A DNA stretch of 64,000 nt, taken from sequence record PP418985.1; one strand, written 5' to 3'. The first letter of the stretch is position 1. Each line of letters starts with the position of its first letter. Under the pieces are notes generated by a model. It saw nothing but the letters and a program-made list of their open reading frames with translations. It did not search any database and was not told where the DNA came from. A program made the translations under genes and the position numbers. This DNA is from Escherichia phage UPWr_E1. Below are positions 4,267 to 61,226 of the stretch, piece by piece.

Positions 4267-4292
4267 CAAATGAACGATGTGAGGATTATATT

Positions 4293-4601
4293 ATGTTTAT
4301 CTCTTCTGCTACTCCAGTTAAAGTTTATGGCGAAACTGTGTATCTTCCGGCTGGCTATTGCTATGTTATCGTTGACCGTCACGGTGTAGTATATGCTTTT
4401 AAAGGTCGTCCGGTTGAAATTGATTCTGAATACGGTACATGGGGATATAAGGCCGCATACATGGATATTCCTGATTTTGGGGTACGCTTAGGAAGATTTG
4501 ATAATGATGTTAAACCATGCCTGATTAAGTATGCATCCTATGGTAAAACTGTTAAACCAAATAGCGTCGGTTGGATTGATGACGGCGTTAACGTGAAATA
4601 A
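4293..4601 (+). CDS. hypothetical protein (102 aa)
   Basis: ATG 4293 after GAGGATTATATT; promoter 4230-4266. Confidence 0.6.
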   Translation: MFISSATPVKVYGETVYLPAGYCYVIVDRHGVVYAFKGRPVEIDSEYGTWGYKAAYMDIPDFGVRLGRFDNDVKPCLIKYASYGKTVKPNSVGWIDDGVNVK

Positions 4602-4615
4602 TGTGAGGTGAATTT

Positions 4616-4909
4616 ATGCTGTCTACTCGTAAAATGGTTGTTGGTGTCGCTGAAAATGCTTTAGAAATCGCTGATGAGGCTTTGACCGTCGCTTATGTTC
4701 AACGTGAAGAATTGCTATTGAAACACGCGGACATGTTGGTTGAACTGAAAGAAGCGATCAAGGCTGGTAAAAGAAGCACCGCTATTGCCATTAAACTTTC
4801 TGATAGTGAAGATGAGATCGTGGAGATCCACACTAAGATTAAGGAAGTAGAAAAATACTCTGAAATGCTGCGACATAATCTTGATGAATTGGGGGTAAAT
4901 CATGGCTAA
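4616..4909 (+). CDS. hypothetical helical protein (97 aa)
   Basis: ATG 4616 after GTGAGGTGAATTT. Confidence 0.55.
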   Translation: MLSTRKMVVGVAENALEIADEALTVAYVQREELLLKHADMLVELKEAIKAGKRSTAIAIKLSDSEDEIVEIHTKIKEVEKYSEMLRHNLDELGVNHG

Positions 4910-5123
4910 GTTACGATCTGGACGAGTTTTAACGCTGGCTGAACTGAAAGAAAAAGGTTTAGACCCTGATTCTGTCGGTATTAGACCTATTAATTACATT
5001 CTGTTTCTAGAGGGTAAACTCTTTACTAATGCTCATCCAGCATTAAATGCACCACATTTTTATAAGTGCAATGACTTTAACGGTTATATCGTTCCAGAAT
5101 ATTTCTTAGAATTTGATGATTAA
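4902..5123 (+). CDS. hypothetical protein (73 aa)
   Basis: ORF overlapping upstream stop. Confidence 0.5.
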   Translation: MAKLRSGRVLTLAELKEKGLDPDSVGIRPINYILFLEGKLFTNAHPALNAPHFYKCNDFNGYIVPEYFLEFDD

Positions 5124-5409
5124 TATAAAACATTCACCGACCGGAAAGGGGTCGGTGATCTTCAATGATGATAAACCGTTAATCTTAATTCGAAATGGTG
5201 ACTGGACATTACATGATACCCGTGTTACTATCCATTCACCGCCTAAAGAGATTCAACGGGAATTGGTTAGGATCGCCCTAACCGATAAGCATAAAGAGGC
5301 GGTAGGCTATTCTCTTTTGAAGTTGGGTGTTGACTTTCCTTTCGAGTATACGCTAACATTCAGAGAGCAGTCAGTGAAGCTAACAGAGATTCTATTCTCT
5401 GAGATATGA
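5116..5409 (+). CDS. hypothetical protein (97 aa)
   Basis: ATG 5116; a perfect 9-bp hairpin (5134-5158) lies inside the 5' coding region. Confidence 0.45.
   Translation: MINIKHSPTGKGSVIFNDDKPLILIRNGDWTLHDTRVTIHSPPKEIQRELVRIALTDKHKEAVGYSLLKLGVDFPFEYTLTFREQSVKLTEILFSEI
5134..5158 (+). other. perfect 9-bp stem hairpin inside a coding region
   Basis: TCACCGACC-ggaaagg-GGTCGGTGA; no T-run follows. Confidence 0.5.
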
Positions 5410-5419
5410 GGATTATATA

Positions 5420-5851
5420 ATGGTTTATCCAACTCCTAGTAAGATTTACATCGATGATACCCATTTTATGGTTGATATGATGGGTATCACTTTTAGCGGT
5501 AAGATTAATATTGTAGAATGGGAATTACACGGTCAACCTGTTACTGACTATGACCACTATATCCCTTTTTTGGGTGATGATAATTTTGTTTCGTTTGACC
5601 ATGAAGGTTACATGATCTTTGAACAGTCCGACGTGCCTTTGTATCTTGCAATGATGCAAATTCCTACGAAAGTTTCTGTTGCTGAGGGTGATTGCGATTG
5701 TTGCGGTTGGTATACTGTAACAGATATTAAGTTGCCATCCGGTAAAGAACTTTACAATGAAGACCATTTTGGAAACTGCAATTTTCCGTGTGATTGGGAA
5801 GAATTTTTCGAACTGGTAGAAATTGAAAGAACTTATTTGAGGAAGGGATAA
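5420..5851 (+). CDS. hypothetical Cys-rich protein (143 aa)
   Basis: ATG 5420 after GAGGATTATATA. Confidence 0.55.
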   Translation: MVYPTPSKIYIDDTHFMVDMMGITFSGKINIVEWELHGQPVTDYDHYIPFLGDDNFVSFDHEGYMIFEQSDVPLYLAMMQIPTKVSVAEGDCDCCGWYTVTDIKLPSGKELYNEDHFGNCNFPCDWEEFFELVEIERTYLRKG

Positions 5852-6663
5852 TGAAGAAAGCATTAGGTTTAATTCCCTATACTGGCAATAAGGAAAAGTT
5901 ATTGCCATGTGTTAGTAAGTATTTCCCTAAGCATTATAACCGCTTTGTTGATGCCTTTTGTGGCGGCTTGAGCGTGTCTCTGTACGTCGAAGGTGATGTG
6001 CTGGCTAATGACTATGATCACCGCTTAATTGATGCTTACAAAGCGATTGACGAGTGTCCTGATCCGGTTTCTACGATCAAGCGGATTATTTCCGAAAATG
6101 GTTTGTCTCGTGATGATAAAGATGCTTACATGGCATTCCGTAAGAAGTATAACGAGAATCCAGATCCACTATCGCTGTTTGTGTTGATTCAGCATAGTTT
6201 TAGCAACATTAACCGTCATAACCGGAAGGGAGAATTTAATGCTAATTTTGGTCGCCGGACTTTTAACGAAAACGCGGTAGAGCGTGTCCTGAATTTTAAA
6301 GAAGAAAACAAAGACGGTCGAATCAATTTTACGTCTGGTCGTTATGACGAGATCGAGATCTTGCCCGGTGATTTCGTTTATTTGGACCCGCCGTACCTTA
6401 TCACTTCTGCGGAATATAATAAGTTCTGGAGTGACGAGGAAGAGATTAAATTCTATCAGTGGGTAGAATCTATTATGGCGAGTGGTTTTCAGTTTGGTAT
6501 CAGTAATGTCACACATCATAAGGGAAAGGTAAATGATCATCTTCTTGACTTTATCAAGCGGAATGATTTAAACTGCGTCCTGTTGAATAAGACCTATTGC
6601 CTAGATCGTTCAGGTGGCAAGTCTTCTGATACGCAAGAAGTTTATGTAACTAACGTAGATTGA
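5851..6663 (+). CDS. dam: DNA adenine (N6) methyltransferase, Dam family
   Basis: 270 aa; FCGGLSV (motif I) and DPPY (motif IV); colinear by eye with remembered T4 Dam. Confidence 0.9.
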   Translation: MKKALGLIPYTGNKEKLLPCVSKYFPKHYNRFVDAFCGGLSVSLYVEGDVLANDYDHRLIDAYKAIDECPDPVSTIKRIISENGLSRDDKDAYMAFRKKYNENPDPLSLFVLIQHSFSNINRHNRKGEFNANFGRRTFNENAVERVLNFKEENKDGRINFTSGRYDEIEILPGDFVYLDPPYLITSAEYNKFWSDEEEIKFYQWVESIMASGFQFGISNVTHHKGKVNDHLLDFIKRNDLNCVLLNKTYCLDRSGGKSSDTQEVYVTNVD

Positions 6664-6671
6664 GGTATAAC

Positions 6672-6953
6672 ATGGTAGAAATTTTTGGTTTTGAAGGTTA
6701 CAACTGTAAGTATTGCCAGAATGCAAAGCGCCTTTGTGAATCGCGTAAGATCCCTTACATCTACATTCCGGTTAATGATGGTGTTGACGAAAACGGTCGC
6801 CCTGTAAAGATTGATTCTATCATTGCCGATATTCAGGATCGCGCAGGGGTAGAAGTTATTGCCACCATGCCGCAGATTTTCTATAATGGTGATTATATTG
6901 GTGGCTTTGATGAGTTCCGATCCTTTGTAGTCAAAAACAAGATTAATGGTTAA
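6672..6953 (+). CDS. nrdC: thioredoxin/glutaredoxin-like protein (NrdC-like)
   Basis: CKYC redox motif, MPQIFYNGDYIGGFDE C-terminus; matches remembered T4 NrdC; ATG 6672 after GAGG. Confidence 0.8.
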   Translation: MVEIFGFEGYNCKYCQNAKRLCESRKIPYIYIPVNDGVDENGRPVKIDSIIADIQDRAGVEVIATMPQIFYNGDYIGGFDEFRSFVVKNKING

Positions 6954-6977
6954 ATACCTTCTTTGGAGGGTGAATTT

Positions 6978-7451
6978 ATGTTACTGACTGCTAAGAGTGC
7001 TAAAGAGTACAAACAAGAACTATTCGAAAAACAGGGGGGCATTTGCCCCCTTTGTCAATTGCCACTTTTTGAGGATATGAGCAAAAACCATCTTGACCAC
7101 GACCACGATCTAGATGGGAAAGGGCAAGGCCGCGTAAGGGGATTGCTTCATTCGTGTTGCAACCGCCTAGAAGGATCGTTGACCGGAGACTTTAAACGGT
7201 TTGGTGTTGGTGCTTTAGGTGCTGATTTCGTTGTTTGGGCTACAAACTATGTTAATTACATCAAAGGGGACTACACCAACAATCATTTACATCCTCAATA
7301 TGCTGTTGATAAAGTAAAACGATTTTCACGCTTGACACGCGCGGAGATGGTTGCTATTATGGACGCAGAAGGTTTCGATTACTGCGACGCTGATACAAGA
7401 GAAGAGATCACGAAGAAGTATAAGAAACAATTCATACAAAGATTAAGATAG
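6978..7451 (+). CDS. 49: endonuclease VII (Holliday junction resolvase, gp49)
   Basis: MLLT... N-terminus, CxxC zinc site, HLDHDH and GLLHSCCN motifs as in remembered T4 gp49; ATG 6978 after GGAGGGTGAATTT. Confidence 0.85.
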   Translation: MLLTAKSAKEYKQELFEKQGGICPLCQLPLFEDMSKNHLDHDHDLDGKGQGRVRGLLHSCCNRLEGSLTGDFKRFGVGALGADFVVWATNYVNYIKGDYTNNHLHPQYAVDKVKRFSRLTRAEMVAIMDAEGFDYCDADTREEITKKYKKQFIQRLR

Positions 7452-7454
7452 TAG

Positions 7455-7489
7455 TTGACAATAAGAAATGGGAGTAGTAAAATACTCCC
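7455..7489 (+). promoter_or_regulatory. early promoter with -10 inside hairpin loop (type II)
   Basis: TTGACA 7455-7460; GGGAGTA 7470-7476 / TACTCCC 7483-7489; TAAAAT 7478-7483. Confidence 0.7.
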
Positions 7490-7514
7490 ATCTAATCAAG
7501 AAGGAGAATCAACA

Positions 7515-7787
7515 ATGCGTAAGATGTTTAAAGCTGGTGTTGCCTATGTTTTTAAATCTGAGCAAGCACGTAAAGACTTCTTAGAGGATGACTACGAAGG
7601 ATTGAAAGATACCTACGAAGCAATCAAGAATGGATTTACTGTTCTTAAAGTGTCACCCATTGGTTATGTAAGTGAAATCTCGGTTGACGGGAAAACATAT
7701 ACCGCTAAAGACTTTGATCCGCGTTGGGAATTTATGCTGCTTCCGTGTGACCGCATTCTGTTTCGTGCTGTTCAATTAGTGAAATGA
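7515..7787 (+). CDS. repeat-domain family protein (1 module, 91 aa)
   Basis: ATG 7515 after AAGGAGAATCAAC; stem-loop promoter 7455-7489; GFxVLKV...DG.TY module. Confidence 0.6.
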   Translation: MRKMFKAGVAYVFKSEQARKDFLEDDYEGLKDTYEAIKNGFTVLKVSPIGYVSEISVDGKTYTAKDFDPRWEFMLLPCDRILFRAVQLVK

Positions 7788-7801
7788 TAGAGGATTATAT
7801 T

Positions 7802-8362
7802 ATGGTACAGAAAACGTATAAATTGTATCCGGCTAAGTCTTCAAATGATACTGTTTTTGAACGAGGTCGTTATTACACTTTCCGTAATGCTGAGTCCGCA
7901 GAGGAATTTGTTAAACGCTATCCACAACATAACAAGTTCCTGTATGGTGTGCTTCACAAGGGCTTTAAAGTTCTGACGGTTAATGTTATGGGTAAAGTGT
8001 ATTTGGTAGAAACTCATGATTATGAGGGCGCGTCAATCATGATTGATGCAAGCGAGCGCAAATACTTTAAACGCATCACTAAAAAGCAGTTTGAAGAAAT
8101 GAAACCAGTTAAGAAAGAAGACTCTCTGGAAGATCTGATTAACTTGTTTGGTAAAGTTCGCTCTATCTCCTTTGCGATTGAAGATGACATTACCGACAAT
8201 AAAATCTTTATCAAGAACGCGGAAGACCTGAAAGAGTTCCTTATTGAAAATAGATCTCGGCTGGAAACCTTTCTTGAAAGTGAAATTATTCGACATGATA
8301 CCTACGCTAAATTCAGCGCCGAGAAAGTGGAAGAACTGAAAGAGATTAAAAAGTCACTTTAA
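7802..8362 (+). CDS. repeat-domain family protein (module + C-terminal helical LKEFL region)
   Basis: ATG 7802 after AGAGGATTATATT (alternative in-frame ATG 7784); GFKVL...ERKYFKRI motif. Confidence 0.55.
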   Translation: MVQKTYKLYPAKSSNDTVFERGRYYTFRNAESAEEFVKRYPQHNKFLYGVLHKGFKVLTVNVMGKVYLVETHDYEGASIMIDASERKYFKRITKKQFEEMKPVKKEDSLEDLINLFGKVRSISFAIEDDITDNKIFIKNAEDLKEFLIENRSRLETFLESEIIRHDTYAKFSAEKVEELKEIKKSL

Positions 8363-8365
8363 CGC

Positions 8366-8400
8366 TTGACATGATGAAACGGGAGTAGTAAGATACTCCC
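8366..8400 (+). promoter_or_regulatory. early promoter with -10 inside hairpin loop (type II)
   Basis: TTGACA 8366-8371; GGGAGTA 8381-8387 / TACTCCC 8394-8400; TAAGAT 8389-8394. Confidence 0.7.
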
Positions 8401-8425
8401 ATCTAAACAACGAGAGGATTACATT

Positions 8426-9604
8426 ATGGCTAAATTCTTTGAAGGGCATTACTATGCATTCCGTGAAGGCGGTAAAGATGAGTTTCTAGATTTTTCTCGC
8501 TATTCAACTATTCTGACCGATGCTTCGCGCCGTGGTCATATTCGGGTTGCTGGAATCGTAGAAAAGGGCTTTAAAGTATTAGAAAAAGATGACCACGGTC
8601 ATGTTGTTACTATTGAAGCTGGTGATGTGGTTTATTCCGCTAAGGATATTGTGGATTATTGGGCTACTATGATCATGCACAATGAGCGCAAATACTTTAA
8701 ACGTATCTCAAAAGAGACATACGAAGCAATGAATAAGAAAGAGGATGTAATGCCGACCTACTTTGAAAAAGGTAAATGTTATTCATTCACTCCAGAAGGT
8801 TTGCAAGAATTTAAGCGATTCTGGGGAGAGCATGATCCAGAACACAAAGAAGCCATGAAACTTGTTGATTTTGTTGAGTATGGCTTTTTAGTTGAAGAAG
8901 AATTTCACGGATCAGCTACCATGATCACCGCGAAAGATGAAACCGTCAAGGCAGAACGTTTTTGTGACCAATGGAATTGCTTGTTTGATGGTAGCGAATT
9001 TGAATACTTCGCAGAGATCACCCGCGCTGAATATACCCGTATGCAAGAACGTGGTCAGAGATTTAAAGTAGGCGAACGCTACAAGCCAAATCCACATAAT
9101 TTGCCTCATTGGTTTAACACTGAAACCGTATCAAGTCATGTTATTGAAATTGTTCAAACGCTGGAACATGGATTTAAGGTAACTAAAGTAGATTCTTTCG
9201 GAAGTGTTGACGCGGTTGAAGTTGATGGTGTAGAATATACTCCTAAATCTTTTGGGCTTTGCTGGTATCACCTGATCAGCAATGATGAACGTTATTACTT
9301 TGTTGAACTGCCATCTGAACCGGAAGAAGCACTAGAAGATCATGATCATCTGTCTGAACTGGTTAAACTGTTTGGTGATCTGCCGGGTGGTGTAGGGGTG
9401 GCGGTAATGGGTGAAGGTGCTGTTATTCGCAACCTGAAAGACCTTAAAAAGTTCTTGTTCGACATGCTGCCTAAACTCGATGAGAATCTAGATACAGATA
9501 TTCAGAATCGCAAAGAAATTGTTAAAGAGACTGAAAAAGAGATCGAAGAGATTCGAGCAATTCGCCAGAAGGTGAAAGCAGTAAAGAAAAAAGTTAGTGC
9601 TTGA
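8426..9604 (+). CDS. repeat-domain family protein (3 modules + C-terminal helical region, 392 aa)
   Basis: Stem-loop promoter 8366-8400; internal repeats each ending ERKYFKRI / EFEYFAEI / ERYYFVEL. Confidence 0.65.
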   Translation: MAKFFEGHYYAFREGGKDEFLDFSRYSTILTDASRRGHIRVAGIVEKGFKVLEKDDHGHVVTIEAGDVVYSAKDIVDYWATMIMHNERKYFKRISKETYEAMNKKEDVMPTYFEKGKCYSFTPEGLQEFKRFWGEHDPEHKEAMKLVDFVEYGFLVEEEFHGSATMITAKDETVKAERFCDQWNCLFDGSEFEYFAEITRAEYTRMQERGQRFKVGERYKPNPHNLPHWFNTETVSSHVIEIVQTLEHGFKVTKVDSFGSVDAVEVDGVEYTPKSFGLCWYHLISNDERYYFVELPSEPEEALEDHDHLSELVKLFGDLPGGVGVAVMGEGAVIRNLKDLKKFLFDMLPKLDENLDTDIQNRKEIVKETEKEIEEIRAIRQKVKAVKKKVSA

Positions 9605-55351: not shown

Positions 55352-55591
55352 TTATTTAGGTACTTGACTATCACCCGTTTTATTCTGCTCGTTGCTATCT
55401 TCCGTCTGTTCTTTATTAAACTCCTTATAAAGTTCTTCCACAAAACGGTCATCAATTGGCGTATTGGTATATGCCGCAAGACGACGAGCGCAATAGAAGA
55501 AAATTTTAGTGAGCATCTTTTCACTAATTAACTTTGATAATAATTTCATTCCGAAACTAGACAAAGCACCAATGACGATATTATAGACCAT
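55352..55591 (-). CDS. hypothetical protein (79 aa)
   Basis: ATG 55591 preceded on - strand by AAGGAG; N-terminal hydrophobic segment, acidic C-terminus. Confidence 0.55.
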   Translation of the reverse strand: MVYNIVIGALSSFGMKLLSKLISEKMLTKIFFYCARRLAAYTNTPIDDRFVEELYKEFNKEQTEDSNEQNKTGDSQVPK

Positions 55592-55642
55592 AGCCGTTTC
55601 TCCTTAGTAGTTCCCTTCCGTGGGAGCTTTCCTTAATTCTTT

Positions 55643-55945
55643 TTAGCGGTTGCTCAAACGTCTATAGCGAAGATGGGAAATACCCCTGTTTGTAGTTACC
55701 GTGATCGTTACTCCCTGCGGCACAATACAAGAATGGATCTGTCCCCAATCATGACCCTTATGACTCCCAGACACACAAAAGCCATGCAAAAGCAATTCAG
55801 AGTCACCGCCACCACCACCAGAAGAATGAGCACCAAATGAAACCGTACCGAAAGCGTCTGGTGTCCATCCATTAGGGATATCAAACCAACCCTGATTCGC
55901 TTTACCAGCTTTATTACCTAAAACACCATCTACCCACCATCCCAT
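55643..55945 (-). CDS. small glycine-rich paralog C (100 aa)
   Basis: GWWVDG...GWFDIPNGW...GGGGGD; start overlaps paralog B stop (TAATG). Confidence 0.6.
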   Translation of the reverse strand: MGWWVDGVLGNKAGKANQGWFDIPNGWTPDAFGTVSFGAHSSGGGGGDSELLLHGFCVSGSHKGHDWGQIHSCIVPQGVTITVTTNRGISHLRYRRLSNR

Positions 55946-56244
55946 TAATGCATTCTCCTAAATTGGAAGTGGTTTAAACTTCCTTTGCCAATACTAAAGC
56001 TGACAGTAGCGCCAGCACCAACTAAAGAACTAGCTCCCCAACTTCCTGCACTACCGGCGTGATGACCAGATTCAAGAGTACCGTTTACATATAGCTCTGC
56101 ATCTAGGTCATTACCAGCGGCTTCGGCATGAACAGATACAATACCGCATGAATCTGCCACCCAACCATTAGGAATACCAAACCATCCACCATTAGCATAA
56201 ATGCTAATAGCATTTGCCATTCTTCCAGCAATCCACCCAGCCAT
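55945..56244 (-). CDS. small glycine-rich paralog B (99 aa)
   Basis: AGWIAG...GGWFGIPNGW; 2 nt after paralog A stop. Confidence 0.6.
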   Translation of the reverse strand: MAGWIAGRMANAISIYANGGWFGIPNGWVADSCGIVSVHAEAAGNDLDAELYVNGTLESGHHAGSAGSWGASSLVGAGATVSFSIGKGSLNHFQFRRMH

Positions 56245-56246
56245 AA

Positions 56247-56543
56247 TTAAAACTCCATAAATTTAAAGTATTCAATCCCACCGACACCACCATGACCAAA
56301 TGTAACAGTACATCCAGCAGGAACAAACGCATTAACGGTAAATCCCCAATCCCCGCCACCACGACGACGAGCGGCAACTACACCATCAACGGAAATATGC
56401 ATATCACCCCAACCATCATTAGCATTATGCCGCAAAACAGCAACCCCTGCACGACTGGGTACATATCCATTTGGAATATCAAAAACATGCCATTTTAAAG
56501 CATCAATTTTAGTATTAATTTCACTACCGACCCAATATCCCAT
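56247..56543 (-). CDS. small glycine-rich paralog A (98 aa)
   Basis: MGYWVG...WHVFDIPNGY...GGGDWG...GHGGVGG; 38 nt downstream of gp37 stop, RBS TAAGGA. Confidence 0.6.
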   Translation of the reverse strand: MGYWVGSEINTKIDALKWHVFDIPNGYVPSRAGVAVLRHNANDGWGDMHISVDGVVAARRRGGGDWGFTVNAFVPAGCTVTFGHGGVGGIEYFKFMEF

Positions 56544-56554
56544 TTAAGATCCTT

Positions 56555-56573
56555 AGCGGGGAGAAATCCCCGC
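56555..56573 (-). other. intercistronic hairpin between gene 37 and glycine-rich paralog A
   Basis: + strand AGCGGGGA-gaaa-TCCCCGCT; same stem word as the type I promoter hairpins; T-run only on + strand side. Confidence 0.55.
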
Positions 56574-56581
56574 TATTTTAA

Positions 56582-59500
56582 TTAACCAAATAATTTAGCC
56601 TCAATTGCAGCAAGACGTTCACGAAGAATTTTATTTTCTTCTTTAAGAAGTGCAATTTCTTCTGTGTGTTCGTTGATTGCAGCAGTAATTAAACCAATAA
56701 CACCGTTATAGTTCAAACGAAGAAGGTTTTCACCAACCGGATCGCCTTCAACTAGTTCCGGTAAAATGGCTTGAACTTCTTGAGCAATCAAACCAGCATT
56801 AGGCTCCCATCGTTCGCTACCGTCTTCATTTACTCCGCGTTTTTGAAGATACATATAACCGTTAATTTTTGAAAGTGTCTGTGATGCATTTTCAAATTTA
56901 ACTAAATCCTTCTTCACGCGAATATCAGAACGGATATAAATGTCACGAACATATGTCGAATAGTTGTCATTCGCCTGAATCAAATGACCATGAGAAATAA
57001 TAGCTTTGTCAACTTCGGTCCATAAAGCAGCACCAACACTCCATAATCCAGGATGTTCTTGATGGAAGATACCCCATGAGGCAATATGTTGTCCGTTTGC
57101 CATCAGGTTAATACGTCCATCACCACCATGCGCTAAACCAGTGTCATTATCACCAATAGCAATTGATGCGCCTCCCCAAACCGGAACCGTACCAACACCA
57201 ATTCTAGGAGTTTGAATCAAAGGGCAATAAAACTGTCCGTTAGCATGAAACTCAAACACACCTTGTGGATGGTTAGCCCCTGGTGTAGCTTCCGCAGATC
57301 CAACACGAATAACAGCTTGTCCCCATGTTCCGGGAGTACGACGTAAGCCAAAGTCAGCCTTAGTAGAATATCCTTGACCTGTGATCTGGCTATGTCCTTT
57401 AATAAGTGGATAATAGCTATCTTGTCCAACACTACCCTGATCAATAAAGATAGGTGCTTCTTCGCGCCACTGTCCGTCCCATGAACCGGAATGATTAGCA
57501 ACCCACTGTGTAGCGTTTATATAGATGCGGTCTTTGCTAATACTAACATTATTAAAATTTTGTGGCGCAAGTGCTATCTCGCCATTATTCGTGATGTGTA
57601 TACCAGCCTGAGTTGCATAGCTATAAAATGCTAGCGAATTATCCGCACCACCTTTACCAATATACCAGTTATTATTTCCGCCTATATCACCGCGAATATG
57701 CAAAGAATTGCTAGCGGTAGTCGATAGTACAATCGCATCACCCGGACGTTTAATGGTTAGTCGACCGTCGGATTCAACTTCACCAAAGAACTTAGTTTTA
57801 ATTGCACCCGTCGCTAAAGTACGTTCAGTGGAAAAATGAGCGCCTTTGCTATCTTCTAACTGAATAATGTTATCACGAGCATTATTGCTATCACCCCAAT
57901 GATTAAACCGGAAATAATCGCGTGATTGCTTACCACCCGCTTCAAACGTCAGCGTACCTTTACTTAAATTAACATCACCACCAAAGGTAGCAGCAAGCGA
58001 ACTACTTTTTAATCTTAAAATATCAGCACCGCTAGTTCCACCTAAAGTAACATCACCAGTTTTGAATTGATAACGGAAAGGTCTATTTGTGTTAAAGTTT
58101 CCATCTTGATCATTTTCGTCGGTGGAAAGAATATAAAGACTTTCACCATCATTACGGAAAATTGTACCAAAATTACCGCCATACATTTTAAATGCATTGG
58201 ATGAACGGAATTTAACTTCTGTGTTAAAAGTTGTAGTTGATTTAAACGTTGTTGAACTACCGAAGTTAACAACACCATTAAAATCTTGTTGTGCTGTCCA
58301 TGTGTGGCGACCATCTTCCACAACAATACGGCGAACGGTATTAGTTCTATTTCCCGGATTACCAGCTACACGAACGACAAAATAACGGTAGTTAGCTTGT
58401 GACACAGTACCACGCCAAACCTGAACGGTGCGACCTGTTCCGGTATGCTCACTAGGTCCAACGGATAACATAATTAAGTTACCGTCAATCGTTCCCCAAT
58501 CCATATTTGCTGGCATGTTCTTGACTTTATTCAGCGGTACGCTATACATCCCGCCAGGAACAAAATCAAATGTTTGCCAGTCTAGCTCTGTTAATTGAGC
58601 TTTAACACCACCCATACCCAAAGTAATTGGCAGAGAATAAGATGTATATACTTCGTTCCATGTACCCCAAACGCCATTAGTATATGCGCGCTCAAAAATA
58701 CGTCCGCGAGTAGTTGCACCTGTTCCGGCAGTAGTAAATTTTTGGAAAATAGCACCACCAGAAGCACGCTGTTTAACTTCCAGCAAACCAACAATAACAG
58801 GCGGCAAACCTTCACCTGTAGGGCAGTTAATAACGGCATCAGTGCCTAAAATATTATATAAACCTGGAGTTTTAAAATCATTCAGGTTTCCGTCATAGAA
58901 AGTCGCTGGTGTGACATTACCTACTTGTTGCCACGGTCCCCATTTAGGCGCAGAAGCATCCCACGCAGCAGCAAGACAACGAGTATAAACAACACCAAAT
59001 CTGGTCGTATATCTCTGTGTGCGAGAATATTTTCCACCTTCATATACTTCTAAAAGTCCTTGAGCGGACGATCCTTCTTCTGGGAAATTTCTGTCAAAGG
59101 TAGCAATGGTATTTGAACTATTCCGCCACAAACCAAAATGTTCCGCGCCACCTAGATCATTAAGATCAATTGTGGTTGACAATGGACGAGTACCGGATTG
59201 AATATTTCTCCACACACCCCACGGACCATCAACACCATTCCATTTAGCAGACAAAGAACGAATATAAACATTTCCGTATCTAGTTGTATATCTCTGAGTT
59301 CCAGCAAATTGCCCAGCCGTAAACACTTCCAATACACCAACAGCATTTTCTTCTGGGAATTTATTTGCAGGTTGCGCATTTGTTGAAGTAGATTTAGACC
59401 AAATGCCAGTAAATTTACCAGTCGGTCCATAATTATCTAAATTTGCATCAGTTGGCAATTCGCCGCGAAAGTGTCCCAAAGTAATTACATTATTGCTGTC

Positions 59501-59626
59501 ATCTTTTGTATATAGTTCTCGATCCGCTAGGTTAATAGCAAGTTCACCCGGAGTTAGAATATTCGCATCCGGCTTGCGACCTGCCGTACTTGTTCTTTTA
59601 AATTGGATTCTCTGTAAATCTGCCAT
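56582..59626 (-). CDS. 37: long tail fibre distal subunit gp37 with C-terminal intramolecular chaperone domain
   Basis: 1014 aa (T4 gp37 about 1026 aa); between 36-like gene and holin; C-terminal about 120 aa contain SDIRVKKDL plus coiled coil, typical of peptidase S74 auto-cleaving chaperone domains. Confidence 0.85.
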   Translation of the reverse strand: MADLQRIQFKRTSTAGRKPDANILTPGELAINLADRELYTKDDSNNVITLGHFRGELPTDANLDNYGPTGKFTGIWSKSTSTNAQPANKFPEENAVGVLEVFTAGQFAGTQRYTTRYGNVYIRSLSAKWNGVDGPWGVWRNIQSGTRPLSTTIDLNDLGGAEHFGLWRNSSNTIATFDRNFPEEGSSAQGLLEVYEGGKYSRTQRYTTRFGVVYTRCLAAAWDASAPKWGPWQQVGNVTPATFYDGNLNDFKTPGLYNILGTDAVINCPTGEGLPPVIVGLLEVKQRASGGAIFQKFTTAGTGATTRGRIFERAYTNGVWGTWNEVYTSYSLPITLGMGGVKAQLTELDWQTFDFVPGGMYSVPLNKVKNMPANMDWGTIDGNLIMLSVGPSEHTGTGRTVQVWRGTVSQANYRYFVVRVAGNPGNRTNTVRRIVVEDGRHTWTAQQDFNGVVNFGSSTTFKSTTTFNTEVKFRSSNAFKMYGGNFGTIFRNDGESLYILSTDENDQDGNFNTNRPFRYQFKTGDVTLGGTSGADILRLKSSSLAATFGGDVNLSKGTLTFEAGGKQSRDYFRFNHWGDSNNARDNIIQLEDSKGAHFSTERTLATGAIKTKFFGEVESDGRLTIKRPGDAIVLSTTASNSLHIRGDIGGNNNWYIGKGGADNSLAFYSYATQAGIHITNNGEIALAPQNFNNVSISKDRIYINATQWVANHSGSWDGQWREEAPIFIDQGSVGQDSYYPLIKGHSQITGQGYSTKADFGLRRTPGTWGQAVIRVGSAEATPGANHPQGVFEFHANGQFYCPLIQTPRIGVGTVPVWGGASIAIGDNDTGLAHGGDGRINLMANGQHIASWGIFHQEHPGLWSVGAALWTEVDKAIISHGHLIQANDNYSTYVRDIYIRSDIRVKKDLVKFENASQTLSKINGYMYLQKRGVNEDGSERWEPNAGLIAQEVQAILPELVEGDPVGENLLRLNYNGVIGLITAAINEHTEEIALLKEENKILRERLAAIEAKLFG

Positions 59627-61218: not shown

Positions 61219-61226
61219 TATTTATA
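61219..61226 (-). promoter_or_regulatory. T4-type late promoter (TATAAATA) for the gene 36-like tail fibre gene
   Basis: + strand TATTTATA 61219-61226 = TATAAATA on - strand, about 34 nt upstream of ATG 61185 with GAGGT RBS between. Confidence 0.65.

Follow-up and report, generated by a model that had tools for sequence, protein, structure and literature searches.

The S74-ended distal tail fiber subunit of Escherichia phage UPWr_E1 and three small paralogous genes found in the position of gp38

The long tail fiber locus of Escherichia phage UPWr_E1 (PP418985.1), analyzed here within a stretch of 64,000 nucleotides (nt) referred to as the window, raises the question of which element stands at the receptor-binding end of the fiber. 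The distal subunit, gp37, ends in a Peptidase_S74 intramolecular chaperone, which the initial annotation took as a substitute for gp38. We found that the unusual feature of the locus lies beside this domain: as judged from the sequence, the gp38 adhesin gene appears to be replaced by three small uncharacterized paralogs, here designated A, B and C, which the initial annotation had overlooked. The explanation that we favor overall, and regard as likely, is that a T2/T6/S16-type gp37 releases its S74 domain; its further element, capping of the platform left behind by the A, B and C products instead of gp38, has about an even chance.

The chaperone end of gp37

Positions 56582-56960, where the initial annotation had placed the chaperone domain, form the 3' end of the 1014-codon minus-strand open reading frame (ORF) 56582-59626. 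Its product belongs to phrog_1699 ('long tail fiber protein distal subunit', E 2.5e-186) and the gene lies in the T-even order gp34, gp35, gp36, gp37 ... holin t. Three features were delimited in it (aa, amino acids):

56582..59626, minus strand: gp37, long tail fiber distal subunit, 1014 aa, a mosaic protein (ORF, phrog_1699, Pfam Gp34_trimer and Peptidase_S74)
56585..56929, minus strand: Peptidase_S74 intramolecular chaperone, aa 900-1014, with the catalytic pair S900/K905 and a helical segment at aa ~979-1012 (Pfam, 6f45_A, motif alignments)
56927..56932, minus strand: predicted autocleavage site between R899 and S900, codons CGT TCT (aligned with the S16 and fPS sites)

By profile and sequence comparison, the S74 match at this place is confirmed and far beyond chance. 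Pfam Peptidase_S74 covers aa 900-959 with E 2.4e-11 and 44.2 bits, the gathering cutoff being 22 bits, and extends over profile positions 1-57 of 58. The best solved relative of gp37 in the Protein Data Bank (PDB; phmmer) is the distal subunit of phage S16, 6f45_A (E 7.1e-40, aa 817-1003), which is still recovered with E 2.6e-30 when the last 135 aa are searched alone; with these residues, a fragment of myelin regulatory factor, 7dc3, which we take to be S74-type, is also weakly matched around the SD.R.K motif (E 0.036). No NCBIfam match was obtained for gp37. The two strings that had been pointed out within the last ~120 aa are indeed there, SDIRVKKDL at aa 900-908 and the helical stretch LITAAINEHTEEIALLKEENKILRERLAAIEAKL at aa 979-1012, and the same holds for the conserved Ser/Lys pair: the Ser at the first residue of the S74 domain and the Lys five residues on are S900 and K905 in SDIRVK, aligned with SSDRRIKK of S16 (codons as read from the sequence: R899 56930-56932, S900 56927-56929, K905 56912-56914). 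No variation at S900, D901, R903 or K905 was seen among five Krischvirus gp37 proteins or among nine fibers of three phage types. The domain occupies the extreme C-terminus (aa 900-1014 of 1014) and the alignment with the S16 chaperone reaches aa 1003, including the helical end; the last 115 residues of gp37 (S900-G1014) are assigned by this homology to a Peptidase_S74 intramolecular chaperone.

In S16, the last 113 residues of gp37 are reported to constitute the intramolecular chaperone, which, as experiments showed, is autocleaved after trimerization between the two Ser of DLNVS^SDRRIKK (^ marks a cut or its predicted position), thereby baring the docking surface for gp38, and fPS phages possess the equivalent site DVYIR^SDGRLKI (PMC7917993, section 3.8). 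For T2 and T6, a proteolytic C-terminal cut of gp37 followed by capping with the gp38 adhesin is described (PMC3157838). Since the UPWr_E1 motif DIYIR^SDIRVKK aligns with the S16 and fPS sites, a cut of the R899-S900 bond is predicted in this phage as well. An alignment of nine fibers showed that gp38 carriers and A-B-C carriers have the same final strand, D(V/I)Y(I/V)R^SD. By analogy with S16, T2 and the endosialidases, three gp37 C-terminal domains would pair up first and nucleate the trimeric β-helix of the tip, after which Ser900, activated by Lys905 as the base five residues downstream, would cut the R899-S900 bond of each chain. The 115-aa chaperone would then be let go, leaving a mature gp37 of 899 aa whose end would be a flat three-fold platform made by the strand ...RDIYIR. 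In practical terms, R899 is predicted to be the last residue of mature gp37, and the element that binds the receptor would have to be looked for elsewhere.

Such an end is widespread among phages. When the last 212 aa of gp37 were used as a tblastn query (E<1e-10), 685 phage records with a homologous tip plus chaperone were found, 329 of them aligned over 80% or more of the query length; the records include wV7, JS10 and HY03, annotated as distal long-tail-fiber subunits. All five Krischvirus gp37 proteins examined end in S74, whatever gene comes next. S16-like fibers are present in most T-even phages, T4 representing the rarer type, as noted by those who solved the S16 structure (PMC6851490). 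The initial annotation described the domain as the hallmark of T5 fibers and endosialidases, although such an end is the common state of T-even gp37. On sequence grounds, gp37 of UPWr_E1 is best classified as a T2/T6/S16-type, not a T4-type, distal subunit, and its S74 end as the ordinary and already known arrangement of that class, which by itself carries little weight.

The likeness to the S16 tip (6F45) and to the T2/T6 fibers comprises a homologous distal β-helix tip with its C-terminal chaperone (E 7e-40, aa 817-1003), a cleavage motif at the same position (DLNVS^SDRRIKK in S16, DIYIR^SDIRVKK here) and a gene position before the holin gene t; a 12-aa insertion sets the UPWr_E1 tip apart from that of S16. 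As for the K1F/NF endosialidases and T5 pb1, they share with gp37 the Pfam family, the Ser-Lys i/i+5 spacing and the location C-terminal to a trimeric fiber, and their chaperone is released after folding, as predicted for gp37. Yet their functional end is the exposed tip or enzyme itself, while the end of gp37 is a presumed docking platform in the T-even style; the likeness is one at family level, neither of them appearing in the PDB sequence search. T4 gp37, in turn, has the same role in the fiber, the same gp34-gp35-gp36-gp37 order and a related N-terminus, but T4 relies on the separate chaperones gp38 and gp57A, whereas folding of UPWr_E1 gp37 would be aided in cis by the S74 domain. The expectation that the mature tip is unlike that of T4 was borne out insofar as the PDB search of gp37 gave no match to the T4 needle-tip structure, only to the S16 tip, and Pfam gp37_trimer scored 17.3 bits, under its cutoff of 21.7. 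None of the nine ORFs around gp37 matched a fiber-assembly family in Pfam, in a search that used no T4 gp38 query.

Genes A, B and C in the gp38 slot

The S74 end of gp37 predicts a gp38 adhesin, because the closest tip, that of Tequatrovirus HZ_ZJUN4 (82.5% aa identity), is followed by a gp38 with 72% identity over the first ~150 residues to the genuine gp38 of Krischvirus G2494, a Pfam GP38 plus Gp38_N protein. In both phages an S74-ended gp37 precedes a genuine gp38, and as a rule, to judge from these loci, the S74 end goes with the adhesin: it predicts gp38 and does not exclude it. The statement that gp37 ends in a chaperone domain 'rather than depending on gp38' mixes two proteins of the same name, the T4 gp38 folding chaperone and the T2/S16 gp38 adhesin, which needs the S74-processed tip. 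What stands of it is that gp38 is absent here; what fails is the reasoning, as an S74 end is normally paired with a gp38 adhesin. With G2494 gp38 as the tblastn query, no GP38-family gene was found in the window (just a 13-residue match at E 7.2), and the same search of the complete genome (170.7 kb) of the RB49-like Krischvirus Escherichia phage vB_EcoM_G2248, to which the locus is 93% identical, gave nothing at E<=1. The whole-genome search mattered since gp38 is displaced in RB49 and several other Krischviruses, where it lies ~55 kb away from gp37 (PMC3157838; bioRxiv 10.64898/2026.04.02.716166; PMC12032242). Two large ORFs ~50 kb from gp37 in G2248 were rejected as candidates for a displaced gp38, as they encode Hoc-like Ig-domain proteins; they adjoin each other (409 and 846 aa; L010 4364-8185, outside the window). 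By sequence homology, the gp37 system of UPWr_E1 appears to lack one defining feature of the T2/S16 tip, the gp38 adhesin, and does not match the T4 system either.

The slot that gp38 would occupy contains instead:

56247..56543, minus strand: gene A, 98 aa, first of three paralogs in the gp38 slot (ORF, paralog comparison, AlphaFold2 model)
55945..56244, minus strand: gene B, 99 aa, second paralog, starting 2 nt past the A stop (ORF, paralog comparison)
55643..55945, minus strand: gene C, 100 aa, third paralog, its start overlapping the B stop by 1 nt (ORF, paralog comparison)

The three products show 30-38% mutual identity. They gave no Pfam or NCBIfam match and no PHROG with known function, and a PDB sequence search with A returned nothing even at E 10. 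Unlike S16, T2 and T6, which have the gp38 adhesin, UPWr_E1 carries three non-homologous ~100-aa genes at this place: gp38 homology of A, B and C was ruled out by hhalign (probability 0.2%). The likeness of their GW(I/V)-helix to the three Trp helices of gp38 was kept as an analogy only, because W4 is not conserved in distant A/B/C members. The genes fill exactly the gp38 slot, the flanks being G2494-like up to 55651 and from 57245 in the blastn map.

The same map reveals the mosaic build of gp37, in which two further parts were delimited:

57245..59626, minus strand: Krischvirus-type N-terminal and shaft part, gp37 aa 1 to ~794 (identity to G2494)
56930..57220, minus strand: S16/T2-type distal tip, aa 803-899, ending ...RDIYIR899 (6f45_A alignment from aa 817)

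Window positions 60000-57245 are 84.7% identical to G2494 DNA and gp37 aa 1-802 are 84% identical to the G2494 protein; the tip segment, aa 803-899, is not present in the aligned gp37 proteins of G2494, G37-3 and KFS-EC. Positions 57199-56635, comprising tip and chaperone, show 82.7% DNA identity to HZ_ZJUN4, and positions 56641-55642, from the last ~19 gp37 codons through the gene C stop, 89% identity to E. coli prophages, before the sequence turns G2494-like again below 55651 (94.8% identity; all by blastn). In one prophage, L014, everything from gp37 aa ~643 through gene C is present as a block; across the final 372 aa its fiber has 72% identity to gp37, and well above 90% at and after the cleavage motif. 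These comparisons suggest that the distal tip, the chaperone domain and A-B-C make up one block common to the side fibers of temperate E. coli phages. The junctions are sharp: at 55642-57672 the distal third of gp37, the chaperone and A-B-C form a block common with the L014 fiber (81% DNA identity), and both flanks are typical of Krischvirus. Within the chaperone domain itself, the final ~19 codons differ in donor from the domain body, the junction lying near 56641.

The A, B and C genes are rare. They were detected in four of 50,697 phage records, which represent three phages, all Krischvirus (G2248, G37-3 and KFS-EC, the last with an A/C fusion), and in 14 of 5,426 complete E. coli genomes. 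Among 5.8 billion proteins they form 39 clusters, and all organism-named ones derive from E. coli, Shigella or Salmonella; 19 representatives were found among 1.84 billion, all true members being free-standing proteins of 97-131 aa. The long matches are repeat proteins aligned in many short pieces and were judged spurious. No fiber with an A/B/C-like domain fused at its C-terminus was found among the 1.84 billion representatives; such a fusion would have proved a head-domain role.

The order 'S74-ended fiber, A, B, C' is kept in nine full loci, drawn from three Krischviruses including the window, six E. coli/Salmonella prophage loci and a contig with a T7-type fiber. Outside the Krischviruses, the unit was located as follows:

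L005 4177-8300; L006 4827-8948; L013-L016 ~4275-8907; L018 106-2959: S74-ended fiber plus A-B-C unit in prophages and contig

The six prophage loci are lambda-like and encode a Peptidase_S74-ended fiber of 1027-1228 aa, then A, B and C; the prophages also encode a portal of lambda type, an S78 protease-capsid fusion and a tail tip of J type. On the metagenomic contig, a T7-type fiber (Phage_T7_tail plus Peptidase_S74, ...NDVQVR^SDKRLK) is followed by genes of the A, B and C types. Since the same order occurs in lambda-like prophages and after a T7-type fiber, the A-B-C unit appears to move between three tail morphotypes. Orthologs across loci are 45-96% identical, compared with the 30-38% of paralogs within a locus, which points to an old triplication with each copy kept separately. 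In KFS-EC (L004 5001-5430), a viable isolate, there is a single ORF of 107 aa in which ~87 aa from the start of A are fused to a segment from within C, and what is left of C follows in another frame; the cause is a sequencing error or else a deletion between paralogs combined with a frameshift. Our literature searches for the trio or for a heterotrimeric fiber cap returned nothing relevant, and as far as searched libraries and papers go, a conserved three-gene unit standing in for gp38 is undescribed.

A proposed heterotrimeric cap and competing explanations

Modeled with AlphaFold2 on an alignment of 33 sequences, A gave a mean predicted local distance difference test score (pLDDT) of 86 and shows an N-terminal helix (residues 2-14), which carries W4, and an eight-strand β-sandwich; W4 is invariant in the enterobacterial set. 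Structure comparison of the model gave C1QL1 (8.1), collagen VIII NC1 (8.0), C1q A (7.9) and C1q C (7.8), with adiponectin, TNF ligands and BclA also present in a long run of C1q/TNF-family trimers, and among viral models (Foldseek, BFVD) the matches included phage tail-fiber and phage C1q-domain proteins. As modeled, A would combine a helix at the N-terminus with a C1q/TNF-like jelly roll behind it; the same build is proposed for B and C. The trimeric heads of this class (C1q A/B/C, lymphotoxin a1b2, the C1q-like heads of phage fibers, BclA) have no sequence homology to A/B/C, which are free-standing 100-aa proteins and not the C-terminal domain of a fiber chain.

In related phages the platform is capped by the monomeric gp38 adhesin, and because gp38 carriers and A-B-C carriers have the same final gp37 strand, we propose that A, B and C would take its place. 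That the processed gp37 platform is capped by their products as a 1:1:1 heterotrimeric head, serving as the receptor-binding tip instead of gp38, has in our estimate about an even chance. A fuller version, in which the C1q/TNF-like 1:1:1 head docks via its three N-terminal helices on the platform vacated by S74 and represents a detachable, portable class of adhesins, is put forward more tentatively, at slightly less than even odds. Indirect support for the trimer comes from three conserved, ordered and coupled paralogs, the structure prediction being of A as a single chain. If true, three subunits would be the answer to a symmetry problem for which monomeric gp38 uses three Trp-tipped helices, and this adhesin class would always be encoded right after an S74-ended fiber and be swapped among enterobacterial T4-like, lambda-like and T7-like phages. 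A-B-C would then be a new small modular handle for retargeting fibers of three tail types. Receptor specificity of T-even phages is at present predicted, and altered by engineering, on the basis of gp38; phages and prophages that swap gp38 for A-B-C would escape such predictors.

Several points weigh against the proposed cap. The A model has moderate fold scores, distant members have L, M or N in place of W4, and similarity to the Trp helices of gp38 is undetectable by hhalign (probability 0.2%). KFS-EC, a viable phage, has only the damaged A/C fusion with its frameshift. The gp38 negative for UPWr_E1 itself covers the 64-kb window, and RB49 shows that gp38 can be displaced. Presence of A, B and C in the virion, their binding to gp37 and their heterotrimeric assembly are what we infer, and for cleavage of gp37 in this phage it is homology that stands.

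The bare gp37 tip might itself be the receptor-binding site once the chaperone has left, in the manner of T5 pb1 and the endosialidases, with A, B and C unrelated to the fiber, e.g., moron or exclusion genes carried along with the module. T5-type S74-ended fibers need no separate adhesin, KFS-EC apparently copes with its damaged fusion, and the link of A/B/C to the virion is a deduced one; we nevertheless consider this explanation unlikely, given that the four-gene order is kept across myo-, sipho- and podovirus-type fibers and through 45-60% protein divergence, that the trio replaces the adhesin gene base for base, that the fold predicted for A is the one of fiber head domains, and that the three genes are coupled, in the same direction, within the late fiber gene string. 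Slightly less probable still is a role as tip assembly factors which, like T4 gp38 or Mu/P2 Tfa, would aid folding or protection without being an adhesin. The slot after the fiber gene is the classical site of tail-fiber assembly proteins such as T4 gp38 and Tfa (PMC3157838), and A, B and C do sit in it; gp37, however, already has its own intramolecular chaperone, A/B/C match no tail-fiber assembly family in Pfam, and three diverged paralogs with a predicted jelly roll are unlike known fiber chaperones.

The two remaining alternatives concern gp38 and the S74 domain themselves. A gp38 encoded at a distant locus outside the window, as in RB49, could cap the fiber as usual, and a displacement by ~55 kb, as seen in RB49 and other Krischviruses, would fall near or just beyond the window start. 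We find this improbable to a high degree, as the window and, at E<=1, the complete G2248 genome with its 93% identical locus yielded none, and the large G2248 genes ~50 kb from gp37 are Hoc-like. Least probable of all, and hardly to be expected, is that the S74 domain is a relic staying uncleaved on the fiber. The foreign origin of its last ~19 codons does make it a hybrid domain, but neither the Ser/Lys pair nor the D.Y.R^SD.R.K motif is damaged or varies, the isolate G2248, whose domain is the same hybrid, is viable, and the L014 prophage fiber has the same whole domain at >90% identity.

Expression signals and a neighboring ORF

Two putative expression signals were located in the fiber region:

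56554..56575, no strand assigned: G+C-rich hairpin with a 9-bp stem, between the gp37 stop and the A ribosome-binding site (hairpin scan)
61219..61226, minus strand: exact T4-type late-promoter box (TATAAATA), the only one in the window, just upstream of gp36 (motif scan)

The 64 kb contain this single exact TATAAATA box, compared with a mean of 5.6 in shuffles, and its position places gp36, gp37 and A-B-C in one late transcription direction. The hairpin is annotated as a putative terminator in G2248. We rejected it as an intrinsic terminator of the fiber transcript, since the coding (minus) strand lacks a T-run after it and the scan called a terminator on the other strand alone; the hairpin might act on A-B-C expression, lowering or stabilizing it relative to gp37. 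Between gene C and the holin gene lies a 79-aa ORF (55352-55591, minus strand; phrog_402), which is kept in Krischviruses with and without gp38 and may be the counterpart of the 'small ORF of unknown function' that has been described next to gp37, on its downstream side, in RB49.

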